The translations under genes and the position numbers were made by a program. From IMG/VR virus record IMGVR_UViG_3300029288_000114, positions 33,019-97,018 of that record: a stretch of 64,000 nucleotides of DNA. The stretch is one strand, 5' to 3'. Source of the stretch: a virus (Duplodnaviria > Caudoviricetes). Below the pieces are notes generated by a model, which did not search any database, had not been told where the DNA came from, and was given only the letters and a program-made list of their open reading frames with translations. Positions 5,211 through 35,800 of the stretch are shown in pieces. Position 1 is the first letter of the stretch; each line of letters opens with the position of its first letter.

Positions 5211-8129
5211 ATGACCAAGAGAAAGAAAGCAGAATTATCATTTGAGTTACCAAGCATGGCAGACGATCCGTATAGTGATTTGGATCAGTATTTCCCGACT
5301 CAACTACAGCGTTTTCAGTATCTCGACAAATACTCCCGTTACCGCTACGATCTGGGACGCCGCGAGACGTGGAACGAGACAGTTGATCGAGCCGTTGATT
5401 ATATGCGCTGGCTATCGAAAGGCAAGTTAAGCGAGCGCGACTACAAAGAAATCCATCACGCTATTCTCAACCTGCACGTTATGCCGTCGATGCGCCTATT
5501 GGCGATGGCAGGCGATGCAGCGAAGCGGGACGAGAAAAGCATTATGAATTGTGCGTATGTAGCCATAGACAGCCTTGACGCTCTAGTTGAAATGCTCTCG
5601 CTGTCTATGTCTGGCGTGGGTATTGGGTTTAGCGTAGAAGAGCGTTACACATCGCAACTGCCGCGCATTAAGCGGCAATCCGGCACGTTCTCAGTGTTTA
5701 TAATCCCTGACAGCACAGAGGGCTGGTGTACTGCGCTTAGAGCGGGATTAACCGAGTGGTACAATGGGCGCGACGTAGTGTTTGATTACTCGCAGATTCG
5801 TAAAGCCGGAGAGCCGTTGCGCACTAAAGGCGGACGATCTTCTGGTAGCGGCCCACTGAAAGAGCTGCTCGACTTTACGCGCGGCAAGATTGTGTCGCGC
5901 GGCGGTACGCAGCTTCGCCCTATTGACATCTATGACATCGCCACAAAGATTGGCGATTGCGTGATCCAGGGCGGGGTCAGGCGCGTCGCTACACTCTGTA
6001 TGTTTGACTACGACGACGAGATGATGCTAAACGCCAAGTCCGGCGATTTCTGGAAACACTCGCCGTGGCGCTTCAACTCAAACAACAGCGCGGTTGTAGA
6101 GAAAGAGCTTTCATTGGATGAGGTGCGCGACTTTATGCTACGCATGGACGCCAGCAAGAATGGTGAACCCGGTATTGTAAACAGGCTGGCGATGAAGAAC
6201 ACAATGCCTGAGCGCCGCAACAAAGAACACGAGTTCGGAACCAATGCGTGTCAACCAGGATGGGCTACTGTATTAACGCCCGATGGCATAAGAACAATTG
6301 ACGACATTGATGTTGGAGATATTATTTGGTCTGGAGAAGGATGGACTGAGGTTGCGCGCAAATTGTCGTCTGGCAACAAATCTGTGTACGCATATAAATT
6401 TAGCAATGGTACATTTGTTGGCACAGACGATCATCACATCTTCTCTGGTGGAGAAGAAGTAGAAGCCGGGGAGGCCGAGTCCGCAGATGGATTGGCTGGT
6501 TTGTTTGCAAACGATATTGTGATTGATCCACAAGATGTTATGGACGGTCTCGTGCTTGGGGATGGCACTGTTCACAAGGCCAGTAACAATTTAGTGTATC
6601 TTATTATTGGCGAGAAAGATATGGATTATTTCAATAGCGAAATCTCGCATTTAATAAAGAGAGACAGAACCGCAGCGTTCAGATTTGGATGGGAGATTGA
6701 TACGACAATATCGGCAAGAGAATTGCCATATACATATTTGCGCAAGGTTCCAGACAGGTTTTTCTATGGTGACAAGAATAAAATCGCCGGTTTTTTACGT
6801 GGGCTTTTTAGTGCAAATGGCAGTGTAGTTGACACAAAAGGCTATTACAGAATAGGGCTAAAGCAATCAAGCGAAACACTTGTAAGACAAGTTCAAATAA
6901 TGCTTTCGTCGCTTGGTATACGGTCATACATAACAATAAACAAACCAAAATCGGTCGAATTTAGAAATGGGGTATATGCCATAAAGCAATCATACGACAT
7001 AAATATATCCACAGACAGACATAAATTCATGACAATTATCGGATTTGTACAAAAGTACAAACAAAGAGGAGCCGACGCAGCTCACGAATCAAGAAAACTA
7101 GTATATGGAACACTGCAAGAAATTGAGCCTCTTGGCGTTATGCCAGTATATGATCTTACCGTACTATGCAATGAACATTCGTATTGGACGGGCGGTATCA
7201 AGGCCAGGAATTGTGGAGAAGTGATTCTTAAAAATGCGGAATTCTGCAATTTATCCAGTGTCGTGTGCCGCCCGGAAGACGATGTTAATATGCTCGTTTA
7301 CAAAGTGCGTGTCGCAACTATTATCGGTACGATTCAATCACTTGCGGAGAATTACGAGGGATTGCGCCCTGTATGGGGCGACAACCAACGCGACGAACGG
7401 CTACTTGGCGTTGACCTTAATGGGCAAATGGACTGCCCGGAAGCGCGCAAACCAGAGGTGCAAGATTTCCTACGGCAGCACGCCATAGATATTAATGCGG
7501 AATATGCCGCAAAGATGGGTATCAACGCATCCGCATCTATTACAACCGTTAAGCCATCGGGGAACAGCGGGGTAATGCTGGACATCTCTAGCGGTTTGCA
7601 CCCGCGTTGGTCGCAGTATTATATTCGCAATGTACGTATCAACAAAGGATCGCCGCTGTATCGCGTGCTGAAAGACTCTGGCGTTAAACTCGTGCCGGAG
7701 AATGGGCAAGAGGAAGAAACAGGAACAACGTTTGTGGCTGGATTCCCAATGAAGTCTCCTGATGGCGCTGTTACTCGTCATGGCATGAACGCCCTTGAGC
7801 AACTAGAATACTGGAAGTCTGTCAAGTTACACTGGACTGAGTTAAACCCAAGCTGTACTATCTACTACAGCGAAGATGAACTTGACAGTGTGATCGAATG
7901 GGTGTATAGTAACCAGGATGTTATCGGCGGGTTATCGTTCTTGCCGCGCTTTGATATGAACTACGAGAACGCGCCGTACATCGAGATTGATGCCGAGACA
8001 TACGAACAGATGTCGGCTGAGTTCCCGAAGATCAAGTGGGGCTTGCTGGCGGAATACGAGAAGTCCGATCTGTCCAGCTCTGGACAGGAAGTGGCGTGCT
8101 CTGCTGGCGTGTGCGATTTCAAACTTTAG
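5211..8129 (+). CDS. nrdJ: class II (B12-dependent) ribonucleotide reductase, intein-containing
   Basis: RRETWNETVDR, MPSMR, NCAY, GGVRR, TNA/CGE split by the intein, FCNLS, TTVKPSG, C-terminal CSAGVC. Confidence 0.93.
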   Translation: MTKRKKAELSFELPSMADDPYSDLDQYFPTQLQRFQYLDKYSRYRYDLGRRETWNETVDRAVDYMRWLSKGKLSERDYKEIHHAILNLHVMPSMRLLAMAGDAAKRDEKSIMNCAYVAIDSLDALVEMLSLSMSGVGIGFSVEERYTSQLPRIKRQSGTFSVFIIPDSTEGWCTALRAGLTEWYNGRDVVFDYSQIRKAGEPLRTKGGRSSGSGPLKELLDFTRGKIVSRGGTQLRPIDIYDIATKIGDCVIQGGVRRVATLCMFDYDDEMMLNAKSGDFWKHSPWRFNSNNSAVVEKELSLDEVRDFMLRMDASKNGEPGIVNRLAMKNTMPERRNKEHEFGTNACQPGWATVLTPDGIRTIDDIDVGDIIWSGEGWTEVARKLSSGNKSVYAYKFSNGTFVGTDDHHIFSGGEEVEAGEAESADGLAGLFANDIVIDPQDVMDGLVLGDGTVHKASNNLVYLIIGEKDMDYFNSEISHLIKRDRTAAFRFGWEIDTTISARELPYTYLRKVPDRFFYGDKNKIAGFLRGLFSANGSVVDTKGYYRIGLKQSSETLVRQVQIMLSSLGIRSYITINKPKSVEFRNGVYAIKQSYDINISTDRHKFMTIIGFVQKYKQRGADAAHESRKLVYGTLQEIEPLGVMPVYDLTVLCNEHSYWTGGIKARNCGEVILKNAEFCNLSSVVCRPEDDVNMLVYKVRVATIIGTIQSLAENYEGLRPVWGDNQRDERLLGVDLNGQMDCPEARKPEVQDFLRQHAIDINAEYAAKMGINASASITTVKPSGNSGVMLDISSGLHPRWSQYYIRNVRINKGSPLYRVLKDSGVKLVPENGQEEETGTTFVAGFPMKSPDGAVTRHGMNALEQLEYWKSVKLHWTELNPSCTIYYSEDELDSVIEWVYSNQDVIGGLSFLPRFDMNYENAPYIEIDAETYEQMSAEFPKIKWGLLAEYEKSDLSSSGQEVACSAGVCDFKL
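6249..7211 (+). mobile_element. intein with LAGLIDADG homing endonuclease (321 aa) in RNR
   Basis: Begins CQPGWATVLTPDG, ends GIKARN before C(+1)GE; DGLVLGDG and FLRGLFSANG motifs; lower GC. Confidence 0.9.
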
Positions 8130-8408: not shown

Positions 8409-8435
8409 AACAGCCCGGTTAATCGCCGGGCTGTT
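8409..8435. terminator. bidirectional terminator between convergent blocks
   Basis: AACAGCCCGG-ttaatcg-CCGGGCTGTT with A/T-rich flanks. Confidence 0.75.
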
Positions 8436-8448
8436 GTTATTGTGATAG

Positions 8449-9003
8449 TTAGTCTTTGCGCGAATATGCGAAATCCCTAAACGCAGAATACACCCCGAAC
8501 CTCTCTCGCATCTCGGCAAGTACATCATCTCCCGTGAGTTCGTAGATATTCATTACATGACGATTGTACTCGCTGTCGTATAGCTTCTTGCGCCGCTTGT
8601 TGATTTTCTTAACTTCGGCAAACACATCATCGCGCGAAATGCCATATTTCTTTTCCAGATATTTTGCCAGTTCCGGCTGCGAGAGCGCCTTGAATTGACA
8701 GATTGGGCATAACTCTTGCGGAATGTCGCCGTCTAGTTTGTCGCAGTATTCCAGTGCCTCGTCGTCGCTCATTGCGGCGGTGTCCGGTTTAGAGTAAGAC
8801 GCTCGATCAATCCAGGCGCGTGCGAGTTCCGGTGTAACTTCGCCCTCGACAAATTCTTCTAGCAAAGTGTGTTCGTTCTCGCACATCACAAAACCATAGT
8901 CGCGGCGAGAATTGCCGTCCCAAAATGTTTCGCTCTCGCCGCTGATCTCACAGATATAAGTTGTGCTAGAAGAGTTGGTAACAAATCCGTTGCGCTTCTT
9001 CAT
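8449..9003 (-). CDS. NSSS-leader protein 4 (Cys-containing)
   Basis: Starts MKKRNGFVTNSSSTTYIC; CEIS, CENEH and CPIC suggest metal binding. Confidence 0.85.
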   Translation of the reverse strand: MKKRNGFVTNSSSTTYICEISGESETFWDGNSRRDYGFVMCENEHTLLEEFVEGEVTPELARAWIDRASYSKPDTAAMSDDEALEYCDKLDGDIPQELCPICQFKALSQPELAKYLEKKYGISRDDVFAEVKKINKRRKKLYDSEYNRHVMNIYELTGDDVLAEMRERFGVYSAFRDFAYSRKD

Positions 9004-9428
9004 AAATAATCCTCTGTGAATGTAATATTCTCGCCGTCTGACATTGCCCTGAGCATTTCGGCGAGCGATTCGTCTGAATGTTCGATGTCAAGATAGTATA
9101 ACGCAAAGCCGTCTTCGAGCATCTTAATTCTCTTGGCATATAAGTCTGCCGCGCCGTCATCGTCATCCATCTCGTAGGCAAGTGCGGCAAGCGTTGATTC
9201 ATGCTTACCGCTATTCCACACTTTCCTCATAATAAAGGCGTCGTATTCGGATTTGGTACGCACCACATCGTCCGCTTTCGTTTCCAGAGTGTCGAGAAGC
9301 ATCTTGTACACATACTTCAAGACCAGATGAGCAGCGACGACAGAATCATCCATGTCTGGCAGGCGCTTGATTGCTAACACAAACGAACTACTGCTACTAT
9401 TGGCAACAAACCCTTGTCTAATTTTCAT
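9000..9428 (-). CDS. NSSS-leader protein 3
   Basis: Starts MKIRQGFVANSSSSSFVL. Confidence 0.85.
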   Translation of the reverse strand: MKIRQGFVANSSSSSFVLAIKRLPDMDDSVVAAHLVLKYVYKMLLDTLETKADDVVRTKSEYDAFIMRKVWNSGKHESTLAALAYEMDDDDGAADLYAKRIKMLEDGFALYYLDIEHSDESLAEMLRAMSDGENITFTEDYL

Positions 9429-9431
9429 AGA

Positions 9432-9779
9432 TCACCACGTCTCGTAGTTTTCCAATAGATCATCTGCTGACATAGAGGAATGCTGATCTTCGTTGCCAGC
9501 CCACACTTGATAATCGCCTCCGTGGATAGTGACGACTGTGCCATCTGGTTCTCTTAAATACTTGTAAACCAAACAATACTCAAAGTCGTATGCAAGCGTG
9601 CCCAGCACATCCAGCATATCTTCGGTAATAGCGAATACATCTTGCCCCTCGCACATATAGTTGCCAAACACAATGTAGTCACCTTTTGACAAGTCGATCT
9701 CTTCTAGCTTGACGCGCTTGCCAATAACAACGAACGAGCTGCTAGAACTATTCGTCACAAAACCAACCCTGATCTTCAT
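9432..9779 (-). CDS. NSSS-leader protein 2
   Basis: Starts MKIRVGFVTNSSSSSFVV. Confidence 0.85.
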   Translation of the reverse strand: MKIRVGFVTNSSSSSFVVIGKRVKLEEIDLSKGDYIVFGNYMCEGQDVFAITEDMLDVLGTLAYDFEYCLVYKYLREPDGTVVTIHGGDYQVWAGNEDQHSSMSADDLLENYETW

Positions 9780-10258
9780 TCGTTATCATTCCCCCCTTGA
9801 ATATAAGAGTCTTTTGAAAACAGGAAGTCGCACAGCGTTTCGTAGCTGGCAAAGATTTCCGTGTTCTTGCCCTCGGCGGCGGATGACTGATGGTCGATAT
9901 ACCCGTCCACCATTCCGTCTGGCACTGGATATTTGTTCGTTAAAACCCACTCAACATAATCGAATCCGGCGTATGCGCGCAATGCTTTCTCTAGCGTTGG
10001 TCGCCAGGTCTCGCGGCGCGTATTATACCAGCAAGTATCTCCGCATCTCTCCGCTTCAAGAATTTGCAAGGCGGCAAAGTTTAGCTTGTCATAGAAGTCG
10101 GTGTATTTCTCGTTTTCCCATCCGAACTCAATTTCGCCGCTATCGCCGATTCGGACGATCTTTCCCAACCCAAATCCGGGCGTCATCATTCTGGTGTTGC
10201 ACAATACGATAAAGCTACTACTGGAACTGTTAGTTACAAAGCCCTGTCGTGTTTTCAC
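9776..10258 (-). CDS. NSSS-leader protein 1
   Basis: Starts MKTRQGFVTNSSSSSFIV; start overlaps the rSAM stop. Confidence 0.85.
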   Translation of the reverse strand: MKTRQGFVTNSSSSSFIVLCNTRMMTPGFGLGKIVRIGDSGEIEFGWENEKYTDFYDKLNFAALQILEAERCGDTCWYNTRRETWRPTLEKALRAYAGFDYVEWVLTNKYPVPDGMVDGYIDHQSSAAEGKNTEIFASYETLCDFLFSKDSYIQGGNDNE

Positions 10259-12575
10259 CGCGTCTTCTCCCTACGATTACACAGCACTACTTCTGGTTTC
10301 AACGGACATCCACCCATGCAGTTCTGCCGCACGGCGCATCCCGGACAGCGATTGCGCAACTGGTCGCGGAACGCCTCGAATTGCGGACTGCTCCACGCCT
10401 CTTCAATCGTATGATCGCGCAGGCTAACGCCGTATTTCAATTCCTGGTCGAAGCTACACGGCGTAGCGATCATATCCGGTGTAATGTACATACTGAACCG
10501 CGCACCCTCGCAGGTGTCGATGCTGTCCATGTTGATGTCTGAGGTATAGTTGATTATACCAGGAATAGAACAACTGTCAAATCCAATCTTGAAGTCGCCA
10601 TTCCAATTATCAATAATTTGGAAGAACTTGTCCAGCTTTGGATCGCCCGGCTGCAACACATTCGCTTGCTGTCCAAGCCCAACCGGTTTGTGCAGCAAGA
10701 ACACTACTGCGCTAATGCCATCAGGAAAGTTGTTGTTTAACAGGCGGCAATTCGCTTCATCAATTGAGTTGTTACCGAGAACGTAGTGAATATTTGTAGT
10801 CACTCCAGCATCAACGAGCCTGCCAATTGCGGAGAGCGTGTATGGTGAGCGGTACCACGAAACAGCAGCGGCACCACACATATCTTTGGTAGGGCTACTT
10901 CTTTATCGGTGAGTCCAAGGCCGCTTGTGGTATAGTTGGGGATAATGCCGTACTCGCGCGTCATTCTTAGGATGTCGCCGAATTGCTCGTGCTTGTTTGG
11001 ATCACCACGGCCGCCTAGCGCGCAATTGTGTGACAAAATACCGTTTGACGTAACAAATAGGTGCGCGTCGCTTTTAACCTCAATATCAACCACGCGAGAC
11101 ATACCGGCGGGGGTGACAGATACGACCACATTATCCTTATACAGCCTTGAATTTTTGCTGTTAATATTATTTGCAACACAATCCAAGAACCCGGAACTGT
11201 TCCAGTGGAATCTCGTCGCGGATTTTATAATATTGATGTCATGATTATTGTATATTCTAACCCTATATCTCGTGCTTCTATTGATCGATCTCCCGAAACT
11301 CTTGTCAAAAGAAACACCGCCACTTTCAGACGAAACAGACGGAATAATGCCAAACTTCACACTAAAAAGCATAGAAAGTCCAGATGCCAAATACTTACTT
11401 GAAGTGTTAAATACAACAGACGCTCCATTAACACTATCATACTTCAGATCCCCGTCACAGAAATATCCAGCCAGGAATTCAGTCACCATATCCTGAGAGA
11501 GGTCAAAGATAAAGTTTGGGAGTTGCTTCTTCTTATCTTTGCCGCGACAACCAAATGCAATATCAAATATGATTTTGTGTAAAATATTTGAACCAAATTC
11601 AAAAACGTATTTATTGCTTTTCTTGGTGATGTGATAGCCGAGATTCGGGAATACAGAATCAACACAATGTATTAAATCAAGAAACATAGCCTCTTTCGCA
11701 AGGCCCATAACGTAGCTTCTGCGCGACCCGTCTCCTACATAGTATCCGATCATTCGCATAAGCTCTGCTGACACGGGAATAATTGATGGGACTGTGTACT
11801 GCGACCGCTCCACGCCCAAGGCCACAACCACCGAGTCAAGGTTTCCGTCGTACATTGACAATTTCACAGACCGCTTTCCGTCGATGCGGACATTGAACTT
11901 ATATCCAAGCCCCGCATCAATTATCATCCTGGCTATATTAAGCTCTGTAATTCCATTAAATGCAGTCGGTGTAGCCATAACCATTCTATCGCCACCGACA
12001 ATTTCGCAAACCTGTTTTTCTACTCTCCGCCCGTCCTCTGTTAATACCGGAAAAGTGTGATCCGCAGTGGCTTTAATCTTTCTCCCGCCATCAATCGCAA
12101 TCTCAAAAATGTCCTTAACAGATTCCGACTTAGCGACAACTGGAATATAACCAGCAAAACCGTCGTGAATTTTCTCGCCGATTTTCACATCGGCAATCCT
12201 TATAACTCCACGATCCCCACTAAGTACAATCTCGTCTTCATGCAAGCATTGCATTACAACGCCTTGACTCTGGTGCATAATGCTTTCGTAGTCTTCAACG
12301 CTCATATTCGGCTCGTTGCGCGTCAGCCCACTTTGGTAGCACTGCACACCAGACGCCAAGCATAACCCGCTTTTGCCGTGAACGCAATGGCCCATGATTC
12401 CTATATCGATGAGTGAGGGCATACTGCGCATAAACGGATCAACGCCCGTATCCACCGTGCCCTCAATCACGCCAGAGCGAATATACGCGCCATTCTCGCG
12501 GTTGAACCATTCGGCGAAGTTGTATTTCTTGTCTACGTACATATCTTGCTCGCTACCACGAATAATCTTAATCAC
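10255..12575 (-). CDS. radical SAM/SPASM protein, intein-containing, with an apparent -1 frameshift near 10885
   Basis: N part: CVHGKSGLCLASGVQCYQ, ALGGRGDP, NYTTSG. C part (ORF 10255-10881): KPVGLG, CEGARFSMYITPDMIATPC, CPGCAVRQNCMGGCP SPASM motif. Confidence 0.85.
11025..12248 (-). mobile_element. intein with LAGLIDADG endonuclease (408 aa) in the radical SAM gene
   Basis: Begins CLHEDE, ATADHTF block B, GYYVGDG and FLAGYFCDG motifs, ends ILSHN before C(+1)ALGG; AT-rich. Confidence 0.9.
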
Positions 12576-14404: not shown

Positions 14405-14709
14405 TACAATTCCCCCATCATCTCGCGCACAAAATAATCTCTGATATTGTACCCTTCGCCGATGGCGCGCAGCGCAATGGCTTTCAGGTTCATATACGCC
14501 GCGCCGTATTGCCCACACTCGGCGCTTGTATCTTCAACGATCTTCTCTAGCGCGCCAAGATACGCTTTGGCAATACGTTCTAGGCACTCGCGCCCCATTT
14601 CTTCGCGGCGCTCTATACTCTCGATAAGTTTGGCGATGTGCTCCGCGTCTTCTTCCATGGCGACTCCGTTAATATATAGCCCGGCATTTGTCCCGTAGAT
14701 CGTACTCAT
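14404..14709 (-). CDS. hypothetical protein
   Basis: ORF packed in the operon. Confidence 0.5.
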   Translation of the reverse strand: MSTIYGTNAGLYINGVAMEEDAEHIAKLIESIERREEMGRECLERIAKAYLGALEKIVEDTSAECGQYGAAYMNLKAIALRAIGEGYNIRDYFVREMMGEL

Positions 14710-15569
14710 AAATACATCACCCCAAACATTGCTACGCCCCATAGGGCGATGTCAACCTGTAACGCCCGATCTTTTAACAGCGCCTCATCGGGCGCGAGTT
14801 GCATCTTCTCGATATGAACCAGATAGAGATAGCGAAAGATGCCATAGACCACAAACACAATCGTTGTCGCCGCGAGATGATTGCTCCGCATATTTGTCGC
14901 CGTGATGGTGTAGAGTGAATACATAGCGATGCACAGCGTTGCCGAGATGTTGAGTAATTGCCCCGTGAATTCATGGTTGTTGTAGTTTTTGTCCCGCGCG
15001 CTCTGCGCATTACCGTTAATGGACTCGGCATAACGTTTGCCGAATCCCAGGAATAACGCCAGGAAGAACACGCACAGGATAAGCCATAGCGACATGCTCT
15101 CGGCGTTCACGGCGAACATCCCCGCGACAACACGCAGCACAAAGCCGGTGGTGATTGATAGCACGTCTACAATCGGCTTGTGTTTCAAGGACATCGTATA
15201 CGCCAACTGCATGGCGATATACCAGCCCAAGATATAACTGAATTGCTCATTTACAATCCGCGACAGAACGAACGCGCCCGTTCCTACAAGAACGGACAGT
15301 CCCGCGGCCGTTTGCCACTTCAATGCACCGCTGGCAATCGGGCGATGCGCCTTGCGTGGATTCCTGGCATCGTCTTTCTCGTCTACAATATCATTGAGTA
15401 CATACACGAATCCTGATGCCAAACAAAATACCAAGAATCCAAGCGTGGCGCTCCACAAATATTGCAGATCGAACAGCTTGCGATCAAAGAACAACGGCGC
15501 AAGCACAAACACGTTCTTGACCCATTGCTTAGGGCGCATCGATTTAAGAAACAGAATCGCGGTCTTCAT
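14706..15569 (-). CDS. UbiA-family prenyltransferase (decaprenyl-phosphate phosphoribosyltransferase-like)
   Basis: MRPKQWVKN, YVLNDIVD...D..NPRKAHRPIASG, LKHKPIVDV..GFVLRV, KRYAE, YGIFRYLYL; multiple TMs. Confidence 0.85.
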   Translation of the reverse strand: MKTAILFLKSMRPKQWVKNVFVLAPLFFDRKLFDLQYLWSATLGFLVFCLASGFVYVLNDIVDEKDDARNPRKAHRPIASGALKWQTAAGLSVLVGTGAFVLSRIVNEQFSYILGWYIAMQLAYTMSLKHKPIVDVLSITTGFVLRVVAGMFAVNAESMSLWLILCVFFLALFLGFGKRYAESINGNAQSARDKNYNNHEFTGQLLNISATLCIAMYSLYTITATNMRSNHLAATTIVFVVYGIFRYLYLVHIEKMQLAPDEALLKDRALQVDIALWGVAMFGVMYL

Positions 15570-32847: not shown

Positions 32848-35800
32848 ATGGAAAAGGGATCAGTTTACTGCATGTCGGATCATAGAATCTTTATACTTGA
32901 AACTATGCCGCACTCCGCAATAGTTATAGAATGGGAGGGCGATCATAACGTGGCGTATGTCAAGGTCTTGTCTGAGGAAACCATAGAAACTTATTACGAA
33001 AAAGACGAAGACCCGGATCGCGCGTGGTGGATTGATTACGCCGTTGACTATCTAGAAAGTCGAGCAGCGTAAAATCATTTTACAAGGAGATTGTCATGAC
33101 CGTTTTCAATGTGGACTTATTCGGCAAGACCATGCGTCGCAAGATAGACGGCGCGCGCGTATTACTGACAGGCTGGCGGCGTTTTGACGGGCAGGATTAT
33201 CTGTACCAAACAGTCGTTGGCGGTATCCCGTCATGGATAGACTGGCGACTTATAGCGCCATTGTCGGCGCAAAGGATAGGTGGGGAATGAGTGAAGAAAC
33301 CTATGAAGCATTGGCAAAAGCCCTGCGCGAGTGTGGCGCAGAATCGGCAGTTGTCCGCGTCAGCAAAGATGCGGTTCGCCCAAAGTATCGGGCGTCTGAT
33401 AAGGGGCTGTAAAATGATTTTACAAAACACGAAAGGAGAGAACAATGATAGAATTAGCGGCCAGCGAATGGCTGGCAAGCGCGAATAAAGGGCCAGACGC
33501 AGACGGCACGTATCGGAGCGGGCAATCCGTGTGCTTAACCGCGCACATGGTCAGGCATGTAACCGGGCAATACGTCAGACATCTGTGTATCCCGTCTGAT
33601 ATGGACAGCTTTGCTAATACAGGAAGCGCCTATGTCATCTTGGATCAGTCCGACGTGGACAGTTTGAATAAATATGGGCAATTATAGTAACTAATCGAAA
33701 GGAGAACCACGTATGTTGTTTTTTCTAGGACTACTCATGATAATTGTCATCGGCTCCTTAATCGGAGCATGGTTGAATAGGAACGAATAACCTTACAACC
33801 CGCTTCCCCACGAGCCATGCGCCGTGGTGGATACCTGCGGTCATGCGGCATCTTGGAAGCGGGTTGTAAAATCATTTTACAAGGAGGCAATTGTGTTCTG
33901 GTATAAACTGTATCAACTTATCGCCGCGACGTTCTGCCGCGTGGCAGACGCGTTTGAGGCATTAATGACATGGGCCGAGTCTCATGTCCCAGAGGATTTG
34001 TAGTGCAAGGAGGCAACAATGAGCGAAATAAAATTGATCGGTAATGGGCATCTTATCCCCTTGCAATACGCATGGGAGCTAACGCCCGCGCGACTCCGCG
34101 AAGCAAAGCGCGAGCACGATTGGGCGTTCGCCGATCTGGAAGACGACGCCGATTGCGAACACCAGTTTTTCTGGTATCGCGGCTGGCTGTATATCCTCGA
34201 CGACTTTATGCGCGTCGAGCGGCGAACCGCGCCTGAGTGGATGCAGGAATTCGACGCCTACACAAACGACTCATTTTTCTCTGGCGTCGTGATTAAGTAT
34301 GTGGATCAAGACTTCGACGGCGATTGCGTCAAGGCGTGGACGTTCATTTCGTAAAATGATTTTACAAAAGCACTAGGAGGTGTTTGATGTACACTATCAC
34401 GAACCACGATGTTGTGCGGGAACTTGAAAACAGGGGCATTGATGTTCTGACCGGGGAACGCTGTTCGCTTGGGATGCGCGTGCTGTGCGATTACACGCAC
34501 TCTGGCGCGGAGATTCTGCGCCGGTGTTTGGACATTACCATCCTGGAAGATGGCTCGAACTGGAATTCTGGCAGCAAAGATGACCCGCATGTCGGATCAA
34601 TTATGCTGTTACGAGAAATGCTTGAACCGCTGGCTATCTTTGCGATGGCAACGGCGCATGGCGTCTATGCCGTAATGATTGAGAAATACCCCAAGGAAGC
34701 GGGCCTGCGCGGATACGCCATTCATGCATTCGCGTCACAAGAAGAACTGCGCGAGCGCGTCGAATGGTACAACAAGACGTTTCAAGAAGTGCGCGACTAT
34801 CGCATCATCATGGGGGCTGGATCGGCGGTCAACAATCGGCACGAATTCACTGGCCGATTGTAAAATGATTTTACAAAGGAGTTTGAAATGACAAGCGTAA
34901 AGAAGTACAAACAAGAGATCGAACAAGATTGGGATTGGAAATATGTTGTCGCATCTGCAAAAGATAATCCGCAGCCGTCTATCGACTCGCCCGACGACGA
35001 GATGTTCGGATATTTCTATCTCGGTACAGTAATGAACCTCGCGCCATCCGGGAAATATTATATGCCATGGTGCTCAAACTTCACGGCAAAAGAGGCCGAG
35101 GATGACGAGCGGTGGTACGCTGCTCTTGACGCGATTGCCGAGAAGCATGGCGGCTGGATTGAGAACGGCGAGGGCGACCCGTGCGACATATTCTTCGTCG
35201 TCAGAATCGACCAAGACGAAGAAGCGTTGTAAAATGATTTTACACCTGTCCAGCTCTGGACAACCGAAAGGAGAGACGGCATGAAAGCTATACTTGCAGT
35301 AGACGTGAAATACAAAGACCGTATTCCGTGGGCCGACGCCGATTCGTTGGTGCTCTCGAAGGGAAGCGTTGTTGATGTAATTCCGGCAGACAACCTACCA
35401 TACGGGAACGGAATAGAGTTCTGGATTGATGTGCCTGAACTCCGCGATGACCCATACGGGATGGGACTGTTTGATGGGGAATACGAGCTTCTTGACGGTG
35501 TGTCTCCGCGAGCCATTTCCGATTTGGAGAAGCTACATATCGCAACAATAATGGAAAACCCCCTGCTTGCAAAGCACTATACCGGCAGCCTGCGCAATGA
35601 GATAGACAGGCTGCGCGACATCGCCGATAAAATCGAGCGGTGCATTTCGTAAAATGATTTTACAGGAGGCTTGCGATGAAAGCGTACAATCAATACAGGT
35701 TCTTGCGCCGCCGCGAAAGCGGTATGGCGCGCGAGCAACGTCAGAATGTCAAGCCGCGCCAGATCGAACATGTGGTGCGGGCCATCAATCATATCGAGAC

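Follow-up and report, generated by a model that had tools for sequence, protein, structure and literature searches.

The stretch of DNA analyzed here, referred to as the window, comprises 64,000 nucleotides (positions 33,019 to 97,018) of IMG/VR virus record IMGVR_UViG_3300029288_000114, a 97-kb phage-like contig (Duplodnaviria; Caudoviricetes). Its minus strand carries an operon, spanning positions 12575 to 8449, in which the gene for a radical S-adenosylmethionine (SAM) enzyme with a SPASM domain is followed by four genes, designated A to D, whose products begin with a common sequence tag (Table 1). Phages and anaerobic bacteria by the thousand share the pairing of tag with enzyme, and this suggests a system, so far undescribed, in which a single enzyme would bind the N-termini of a very large number of different proteins and probably modify them chemically. 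We regard it as somewhat probable that the two form a two-part maturation system, the tag being the docking site of the enzyme and its probable site of modification.

Table 1. Features of the enzyme-tag operon and its downstream border, in window coordinates
Feature	Coordinates	Strand	Remarks
Radical SAM/SPASM gene	10255..12575	-	Intein-interrupted; one base absent after 10889 gives an apparent frameshift; delimited by tblastn with the intact orthologue
N-extein, residues 1-109	12249..12575	-	Beta-rich N-terminal docking region and Cx7Cx6C (C64, C72, C79)
Intein, 408 residues, with LAGLIDADG homing-endonuclease domain	11025..12248	-	CLHEDE...SHN, then Cys+1; profile matches and alignment to intein-free orthologue
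C-extein, remaining radical SAM barrel and SPASM domain	10255..11024	-	GGRGDP, NYTTSG, H189; eight invariant Cys
Tagged protein A, 160 residues, isoelectric point (pI) 4.7	9776..10258	-	Tag at 10205-10258
Tagged protein B, 115 residues, pI 4.2	9432..9779	-	Tag at 9726-9779
Tagged protein C, 142 residues, pI 4.6, no Cys	9000..9428	-	Tag at 9375-9428
Tagged protein D, 184 residues, five Cys	8449..9003	-	Tag variant NSSSTTY, at 8950-9003
G+C-rich hairpin between convergent operons	8409..8435		On the minus strand followed by T-rich tail TTTTGTTG; 13 nucleotides past the last stop codon

Start and stop codons overlap by 4 nucleotides at 10255-10258, 9776-9779, and 9000-9003 in the coordinates of the open reading frames (ORFs), and the hairpin beyond gene D is likely the terminator of the operon because TTTTGTTG follows it on the minus strand. 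A first-pass annotation, made from the letters of this DNA, had described four consecutive tagged genes of these lengths directly behind a radical SAM/SPASM gene, the codon overlaps, and a terminator at the end of the operon, and all of these features were confirmed. The four proteins begin MKTRQGFVTNSSSSSF, MKIRVGFVTNSSSSSF, MKIRQGFVANSSSSSF, and MKKRNGFVTNSSSTTY, as that annotation gave them, with the common start MK.R.GFV.NSSS[ST][ST][FY]; the wider 18-residue consensus is M-K-x-R-x-[G/D]-F-V-[T/S]-N-S-S-S-S-S-[F/Y] followed by two hydrophobic residues. Past residue 18 or so, where the annotation saw similarity end, pairwise blastp comparison of residues 19 to the end of A to D found nothing better than E = 0.34. 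Its argument for selection on the protein also holds, since the serine codons of the tag vary between copies (AGT TCC AGT AGT AGC; AGT TCT AGC AGC TCG; AGT AGC AGT AGT TCG; TCT TCT AGC ACA ACT), placing the conservation at the protein level. No further copy of the tag motif was found elsewhere in the 97-kb contig.

Two interruptions obscure the enzyme gene, which the annotation had taken to need both splicing and correction of its frame. The splicing stood: the insert has an N-terminal Cys, a C-terminal His-Asn ahead of Cys+1, matches to splicing-domain and related profiles (PF14890, 42.5 bits against a cut-off of 35.8; PF14528, 24.6 bits; TIGR01443/TIGR01445; LAGLIDADG_3), and a conserved host site, its insertion point lying immediately before the invariant SAM-binding motif GGRGDP. 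The frameshift, in turn, is a one-base assembly gap and not a biological feature, because a T missing from the window after 10889 is present in the contigs of three independent public sequencing runs of landfill and groundwater metagenomes, one of which possibly represents the source sample. Intact orthologues of the enzyme occur in two related phage contigs, L001 and L002, and the 365-residue protein encoded at L001:6907-8004 aligns to the window in three pieces with 84 to 88% identity (tblastn). Restoring the T joins the gene into one ORF that encodes 773 residues; its spliced product, also 365 residues long, is 87% identical to the L001 protein without gaps.

This phage group is rich in inteins. 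The class II-like ribonucleotide reductase of the window (972 residues, 5211-8129, plus strand) has a LAGLIDADG intein as well, which is present in one relative (L002:10676-13585, 969 residues) and absent from the other (L001:10674-12635, 653 residues), and the ThyX gene of L002 (2214-3848) also bears an intein. The 3' part of the enzyme gene contains a perfect sigma-70 consensus (TTGACA, 16 nucleotides, TATAAT, with an upstream TG) at 10553-10580 on the minus strand, about 300 nucleotides upstream of tagged gene A, which, to judge from its sequence, may serve as an internal promoter for the genes of the tagged proteins.

The assignment of the enzyme rests on both profile and fold. Its SPASM domain exceeds the curated cut-offs of PF13186 (30.3 bits; cut-off, 21.5) and TIGR04085 (30 bits; cut-off, 27). 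In our alignment of the family, C64, C72, and C79 were invariant in 20 of 20 sequences. Invariant, too, were GGRGDP, a SAM-binding motif of the GGE type, and eight Cys of the SPASM part (C261, C281, C299, C336-x2-C339-x5-C345-x3-C349, and C358). The spacing of the first three is Cx7Cx6C in one clade (clade 1), the canonical form being CxxxCxxC, and CxnCxxC, including the canonical Cx3Cx2C, in its sister (clade 2). An AlphaFold model of the enzyme (predicted local distance difference test [pLDDT], 85; predicted template modeling score [pTM], 0.86) has SuiB, PqqE, SkfB, anSME, and CteB as its best Foldseek matches (E values of 4e-12 to 3e-9), and the Foldseek probability of 1.00 to SuiB, PqqE, anSME, BtrN, viperin, and MoaA identifies the partial TIM-barrel fold. 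At 90% identity, the family forms more than 4,262 clusters, and its conservation is unusual, with about 60% identity across hundreds of phages. In cultured phages (164 of 50,697 records), it is annotated at most as a "putative radical SAM protein."

The tag is far more widespread than the window alone would indicate. Among 1.84 billion proteins, a profile of the first 40 residues matched 25,823 clusters (50% identity representatives) at an E value of 0.001 or less, almost always beginning at residue 1. N10 and S11 to S13 were invariant across these clusters, and no Cys was conserved in the tag. Position 6 is Asp in most enzyme loci, and a pattern requiring Gly there matched just 26 of 80 phage loci. 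Five database proteins (P0230, P0231, P0233, P0235, and P0239) have two tags each, one of them internal, as if tagged modules had been fused in frame; the internal copy in P0235 is without the MKxR start.

To describe the linkage of tag and enzyme, we drew samples from both sides. Anchored on the enzyme were 80 phage loci and 80 loci from bacterial genomes, in which tags were counted in six-frame translation with the core motif [FHYW][VIL]xNSS[ST]. At least one tag was present in 74 of the 80 phage loci, and the other six were cut off shortly past the enzyme gene. The phage loci held 280 matches against a chance expectation of about 1 in 1.5 Mb of six-frame translation; all 280 stood at the start of an ORF, 279 on the strand of the enzyme, and in 274 the distance from Met1 was fixed. 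Bacterial loci with at least one tag likewise numbered 74 of 80, with 111 of 115 matches at an ORF start and 110 of those 111 on the enzyme strand; most of these loci have a single tagged gene directly after the enzyme.

From the opposite side, a degenerate DNA pattern for MKxRxGFVxNSSSSSF retrieved at least 120 stretches of viral contigs, with 253 tags among the matches listed. Within those matches, the enzyme lay inside 41 of 120 short tag loci, and where the tag locus was free of it (49 records), 32 records encoded it elsewhere, including all 11 that were at least 90% complete. In about 400 genomes drawn evenly from one bacterial class, the enzyme was present in 10, the tag in 9, both in 9, and the tag alone in none (Fisher p = 1.6e-17; 6e-16 without the seed genome), always on the same contig and a few kilobases apart, with a second tag at about 10 kb in one genome. 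Every tag match in five bacterial genomes of 3.2 to 3.6 Mb fell on the contig of the enzyme locus. The first-pass annotation had named enrichment of tagged genes beside this enzyme family as a test of its proposal, and the enrichment is very strong in both directions and in the genome sample. A distant version of the system is carried by the cultured Escherichia coli phages RB16 and RB43; in the T4-like RB16, the enzyme homologue (Cx7Cx2C; L285 5914-7068) lies at 90.4 to 91.6 kb.

Direct recognition of the tag by the enzyme, in line with the annotation's inference of a recognition or modification site, is supported by controlled complex prediction and by co-variation. With the enzyme alignment, a 40-residue tag alignment, three 4Fe-4S clusters, and SAM as input, the predicted complex scored 0.84, compared with 0.00 for the best of three controls. 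Of 80 solved complexes, 58 attain that mark, as do 2 of 110 mismatched pairs, a calibration only roughly valid for our own alignments and riding ligands. The runs agreed in at least 60% of contacts, with a partner pLDDT of at least 46. The predicted interface consists of exactly residues 1 to 20 of the tagged protein, in the substrate tunnel of the enzyme, facing enzyme residues 28 to 35, the ends of the barrel strands (109-113, 137-141, 159-163, 185-189, and 214-219), and SPASM residues 255 to 301. In the predicted pose, tag residues 2 to 6 pair with an enzyme strand (28-33, within the region 28-35), Phe7 lies amid the ends of the barrel strands (139, 159-161, and 185), with residue 185 adjoining tag residue 7, and the remainder of the tag contacts the SPASM domain.

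The sequences of the two partners vary in concert. Between clades, clade 1 enzymes accompany tags with T9 (286 of 286) and clade 2 enzymes, which are 25 to 30% identical to them, accompany tags with S9 (86 of 87). Within clade 1, D6 in the tag goes with K or R at enzyme position 185 (98 of 103) and G6 with T185 (23 of 24), the G6/T185 state having arisen separately in four or more places on the enzyme tree.

The proteins that bear the tag, referred to below as clients, share little else. Proteins A to D are all acidic (pI 4.2 to 4.9) and matched no family in Pfam, NCBIfam, or PADLOC; in PHROGs they matched only weakly, to families of unknown function. The family of protein A has invariant motifs of its own (W47, IDHQS at 121-125, and GGNDNE at 155-160), and its model (pLDDT, 88.5) has residues 1 to 10 below 50, as expected of a free arm, and a fold for which no solved match was found (Foldseek against the PDB, E > 1; VIA-align wide Z of at most 2.8). 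A tagged homologue of A lies on a 732-kb contig, L003, where the enzyme was not found within the 8 kb searched. Protein C has a weak match to phrog_7397, of unknown function, and falls in a cargo cluster of 35 members. Protein D, zinc-ribbon-like (CxxC...CxxxH...CPICQF) and in a cluster of 47, belongs to the most widespread phage cargo family, with D-like proteins in 36 of 74 enzyme-anchored phage loci; a search of the ESM Atlas with it returned unnamed viral clusters only.

Across the loci, 397 unique cargo parts fell into 88 blastp groups, 61 of them singletons. When the 17 largest groups were compared with hhalign after removal of the tag, 133 of 136 pairs had a probability of 5.3% or less and the other 3 had 38 to 53%. 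Clients range from 35 to 1,062 residues (median, about 140), some of 35 to 50 residues barely exceeding the tag, and 93% have a pI below 5 (median, 4.44), compared with 26% of the untagged ORFs of the same loci, an imperfect control that includes spurious ORFs. Bacterial clients are often large and fused to leucine-rich repeat (LRR_5), beta-propeller (PQQ_2), or BRCT domains, and no client has a Pfam sulfatase domain. On one 1.4-Mb bacterial contig (L204:4762-20352), the enzyme is surrounded by seven or more paralogous acidic proteins with tags, which alternate one by one with BspA-type LRR_5 proteins, and a vWA-MoxR gene pair lies upstream; several of these tags have degenerated (NSSSYTS and NHSGSS).

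The best-supported model is one in which a single radical SAM/SPASM enzyme would serve any number of clients bearing the 18-residue N-terminal tag. In the free client, tag residues 1 to 10 would form a loose arm. On binding, residues 2 to 6 would join enzyme strand 28-33 as an added beta-strand, while residue 7 onward, including N-S-S-S-S-S, would thread between the SAM-binding barrel and the SPASM domain, the site at which relatives known to modify peptides accommodate their substrates. The enzyme would then most likely abstract a hydrogen from a residue in the segment F7 to S15 and leave a covalent change behind, so that the tag would be leader and core in one and would stay on the folded protein. 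The leading candidate for the chemistry is a two-electron oxidation of one serine to formylglycine, as by anSME, and the next is an intramolecular C-C or C-O cross-link. We infer that either of these is to be favored over thioether chemistry, because conserved Cys are absent from the tag and the eight of the enzyme would suffice to ligate both auxiliary clusters fully. The clients of phages, mostly small, strongly acidic, fast-diversifying early proteins, could plausibly be host-takeover or anti-defense factors, and those of bacteria would be binding proteins with LRR, beta-propeller, or BRCT domains. A bolder version, to which we give rather less than an even chance, is that a dedicated enzyme installs a new covalent modification, such as formylglycine or a cross-link, in a universal 18-residue tag, and that this modification arms or stabilizes more than 25,000 unrelated families of acidic effectors or sensors in the conflict between phages and their hosts.

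A number of observations weigh against this two-part maturation system. The Radical_SAM model PF04055 has no match to the window protein and is recorded for only some of its homologues, and the Cx7Cx6C motif of clade 1 enzymes is not the canonical one. One genome, G315, has the enzyme with no tag detected, and the tagged ORFs of RB16 (record positions 66967-67077 and 70896-71000) are about 20 kb from its enzyme, not adjacent to it. Residues 11 to 20 of protein A belong to its fold (pLDDT of about 85, with a strand at 16-18), so that full insertion into the enzyme would need to take place before folding or with local unfolding. The score of the complex expresses the confidence of the prediction itself, and known structures of radical SAM enzymes with peptides (SuiB, anSME, and CteB), which bind their substrates at this place, could have biased the pose, part of the score perhaps reflecting likeness to them. 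The T9/S9 split amounts to a single evolutionary event, and the pairing of D6 with K185 was not upheld in clade 2, where G6 tags are accompanied mainly by K at the corresponding position.

The main rival is docking without modification, in which an unmodified tag would anchor a variable binding domain to the enzyme, or plug it; the cargo domain would then regulate the enzyme or deliver a third molecule to it, in the manner of the substrate receptors of ubiquitin ligases. Linkage, co-variation, and complex prediction fit binding as well as they fit modification, and the fusion of bacterial clients to classic ligand-binding repeats suits such a role. We nevertheless think it unlikely: the predicted pose fills the tunnel between barrel and SPASM domain with no obvious space for a second substrate, the invariance of N10 and S11 to S13 over 25,823 clusters exceeds what a beta-strand anchor needs, and some clients are hardly longer than the tag.

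Three further readings are poorly supported. If the clients formed one divergent superfamily, the tag would be the first strand of a shared fold or active site together with a serine loop, and all tagged proteins would be remote homologues that merely act in the pathway of the enzyme. The folded residues 11 to 20 of protein A and the enzyme-like invariant motifs IDHQS and GGNDNE of its family could be read in this way, as could a stretch resembling acidic-x-His-Ser/Thr seen, by eye only, in each of A to D. We consider this very improbable, given the tag-free profile comparisons, the range of client lengths with their LRR, propeller, and BRCT fusions, the position of residues 1 to 10 outside the fold of protein A, and the bodies of the L001 and L002 proteins, which differ although tag and gene position are the same. 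The annotation had itself raised a single ordinary fold with the motif as its first strand as an outcome that would undo its proposal, and the hhalign comparisons together with the free arm of protein A argue against it. Slightly less probable again is a sorting signal or degron that targets proteins to the capsid, to injection, or to a protease independently of the enzyme: unrelated internal proteins of T4 share N-terminal peptides, and the tagged genes of RB16 lie away from the enzyme gene, but the near-perfect two-way genome linkage and the co-variation would be left unexplained, the operon sits among early and nucleotide-metabolism genes, and the pair occurs also in bacterial loci with LRR cassettes, where no called gene had a Pfam match to a virion protein. 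We give the least credence to autocatalytic cleavage or rearrangement at Asn-Ser or Ser-Ser, of a pyruvoyl- or intein-like kind, with the enzyme a mere neighbor. The N-S and S-S dipeptides are invariant, as that would require, but the motif does not lie within any known autoprocessing fold, the cargo is unrelated from client to client, and neither the linkage to the enzyme nor its predicted docking would be accounted for.

The two-part maturation system shares features with several known ones. One is the anaerobic sulfatase-maturating enzyme (anSME/AtsB; PDB 4K36-4K39), which combines radical SAM and SPASM domains with three upstream Cys and Cx2Cx5Cx3C plus C for two fully Cys-ligated auxiliary clusters, both of which are seen so ligated in the anSME structure 4K36. 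Its target is a short motif close to the N-terminus of a complete protein, its substrate residue can be Ser, and its fold matches that of the window enzyme with an E value of about 2e-9. However, the window enzyme falls outside the anSME equivalog (TIGR03942, 14.6 bits against a cut-off of 349.45), and the motif here, MKxRx[G/D]FV[T/S]NSSSSS[F/Y], starts at residue 1 and lacks the C/S-x-P-x-R of anSME substrates, also in the wider form C/S-x-P/A-x-R. In place of sulfatases, the clients here number thousands of unrelated proteins, and the enzyme differs in its Cx7Cx6C, in an extra N-terminal beta region that pairs with the tag in the predicted complex, and in being largely phage-borne.

The radical SAM/SPASM maturases of peptides that are made on ribosomes and then modified posttranslationally (RiPPs), namely, SuiB with SuiA (5V1T), CteB, PqqE, and SkfB, are the closest in structure (E values of 4e-12 to 3e-9). 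They bind a recognition peptide as an added beta-strand and hold the modified segment between barrel and SPASM domain, as is predicted here. In contrast to them, no PqqD-like RiPP recognition element (RRE) domain, protease, transporter, or other conserved partner recurs beside the enzyme in the 160 loci. A RiPP cluster would have a short leader-core precursor with a protease or exporter; the clients here are proteins of 35 to 1,062 residues, recognition and core would be one 18-residue unit that stays on the folded protein, and nothing suggests a secreted peptide product. In RiPP systems with one maturase and many precursors, such as the prochlorosins with ProcM, a single enzyme modifies many substrates that have a conserved recognition sequence and hypervariable remainders, the modified core being the variable part. 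One enzyme with many tandem-encoded substrates is common to both, whereas here the conserved tag is the likely target, the variable part is a folded domain, and the enzyme is of another class.

Internal proteins of phage T4 have a short N-terminal capsid-targeting sequence on otherwise unrelated proteins, which is cleaved by the prohead protease. The likeness to a short N-terminal peptide on unrelated phage proteins is plain, but the T4 sequence is a different one, is cleaved by that protease, and is not known to have such an enzyme partner or a bacterial counterpart. In the vWA-MoxR conflict systems, FxSxx-COOH proteins and FxsB combine a conserved C-terminal peptide, its release by a zincin peptidase, and AP-ATPase effectors (Kaur, Burroughs, Iyer, and Aravind 2020, PMC7159879). 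There, too, a radical SAM/SPASM gene stands beside fast-diverging small proteins that keep one short peptide, in conflict contexts, and one bacterial locus in our sample (L204) has vWA and MoxR genes nearby. Identity with that system (PMC7159879) was rejected, as the tag here is N-terminal, its motif is different, and no peptidase is linked to it. We found no paper describing the tag motif or a phage radical SAM/SPASM system of this kind, most subscription journals lying outside the scope of the search; the annotation had recognized no described pathway.

The enzyme-tag operon lies among early and nucleotide-metabolism genes, and comparison of its DNA with 50,697 phage records by blastn gave no match. 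DUF5662, encoded by the gene immediately upstream of the enzyme, was considered as a third component and rejected, because it recurs in only 1 of the 80 phage loci and in none of the 80 bacterial ones. Apart from the tagged genes, no neighbor family recurs beside the enzyme in the 160 loci, and a PADLOC search for components of anti-phage defense matched only homing-endonuclease models, on the intein. At two other loci (L210:8673-9932 and L126:8673-9932), the gene immediately upstream of the enzyme resembles that for adenylosuccinate synthetase and could be of the PurZ type, serving a modified base; the region around it is prophage-like and has genes for an RNA ligase and a kinase/HD protein as well. 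A gene for a UbiA-family prenyltransferase, unusual cargo for a phage, is located within a phage operon of the window at 14706-15569 on the minus strand, and in relatives (L001:3221-5970), it is accompanied by genes for DUF6884 and a Vut_1 (YhhQ-like) transporter.

If the tag is modified, the system would rank among the largest uncharacterized systems of posttranslational modification in viruses, with one enzyme family serving no fewer than 25,823 distinct protein clusters. A further consequence would be a new substrate logic for radical SAM/SPASM enzymes, in which recognition and target are combined in one N-terminal tag on folded proteins, along with an unusual Cx7Cx6C motif, and a portable tag-enzyme pair for protein engineering could result. 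The idea is directly testable because the cultured phages RB16 and RB43, which carry a distant version of the system, offer a tractable model. For the biology of phages, a function could then be named for a large block of their "dark matter," the small acidic early proteins, and the fusion of bacterial clients with LRR and propeller domains suggests that they take part in conflict or sensing.

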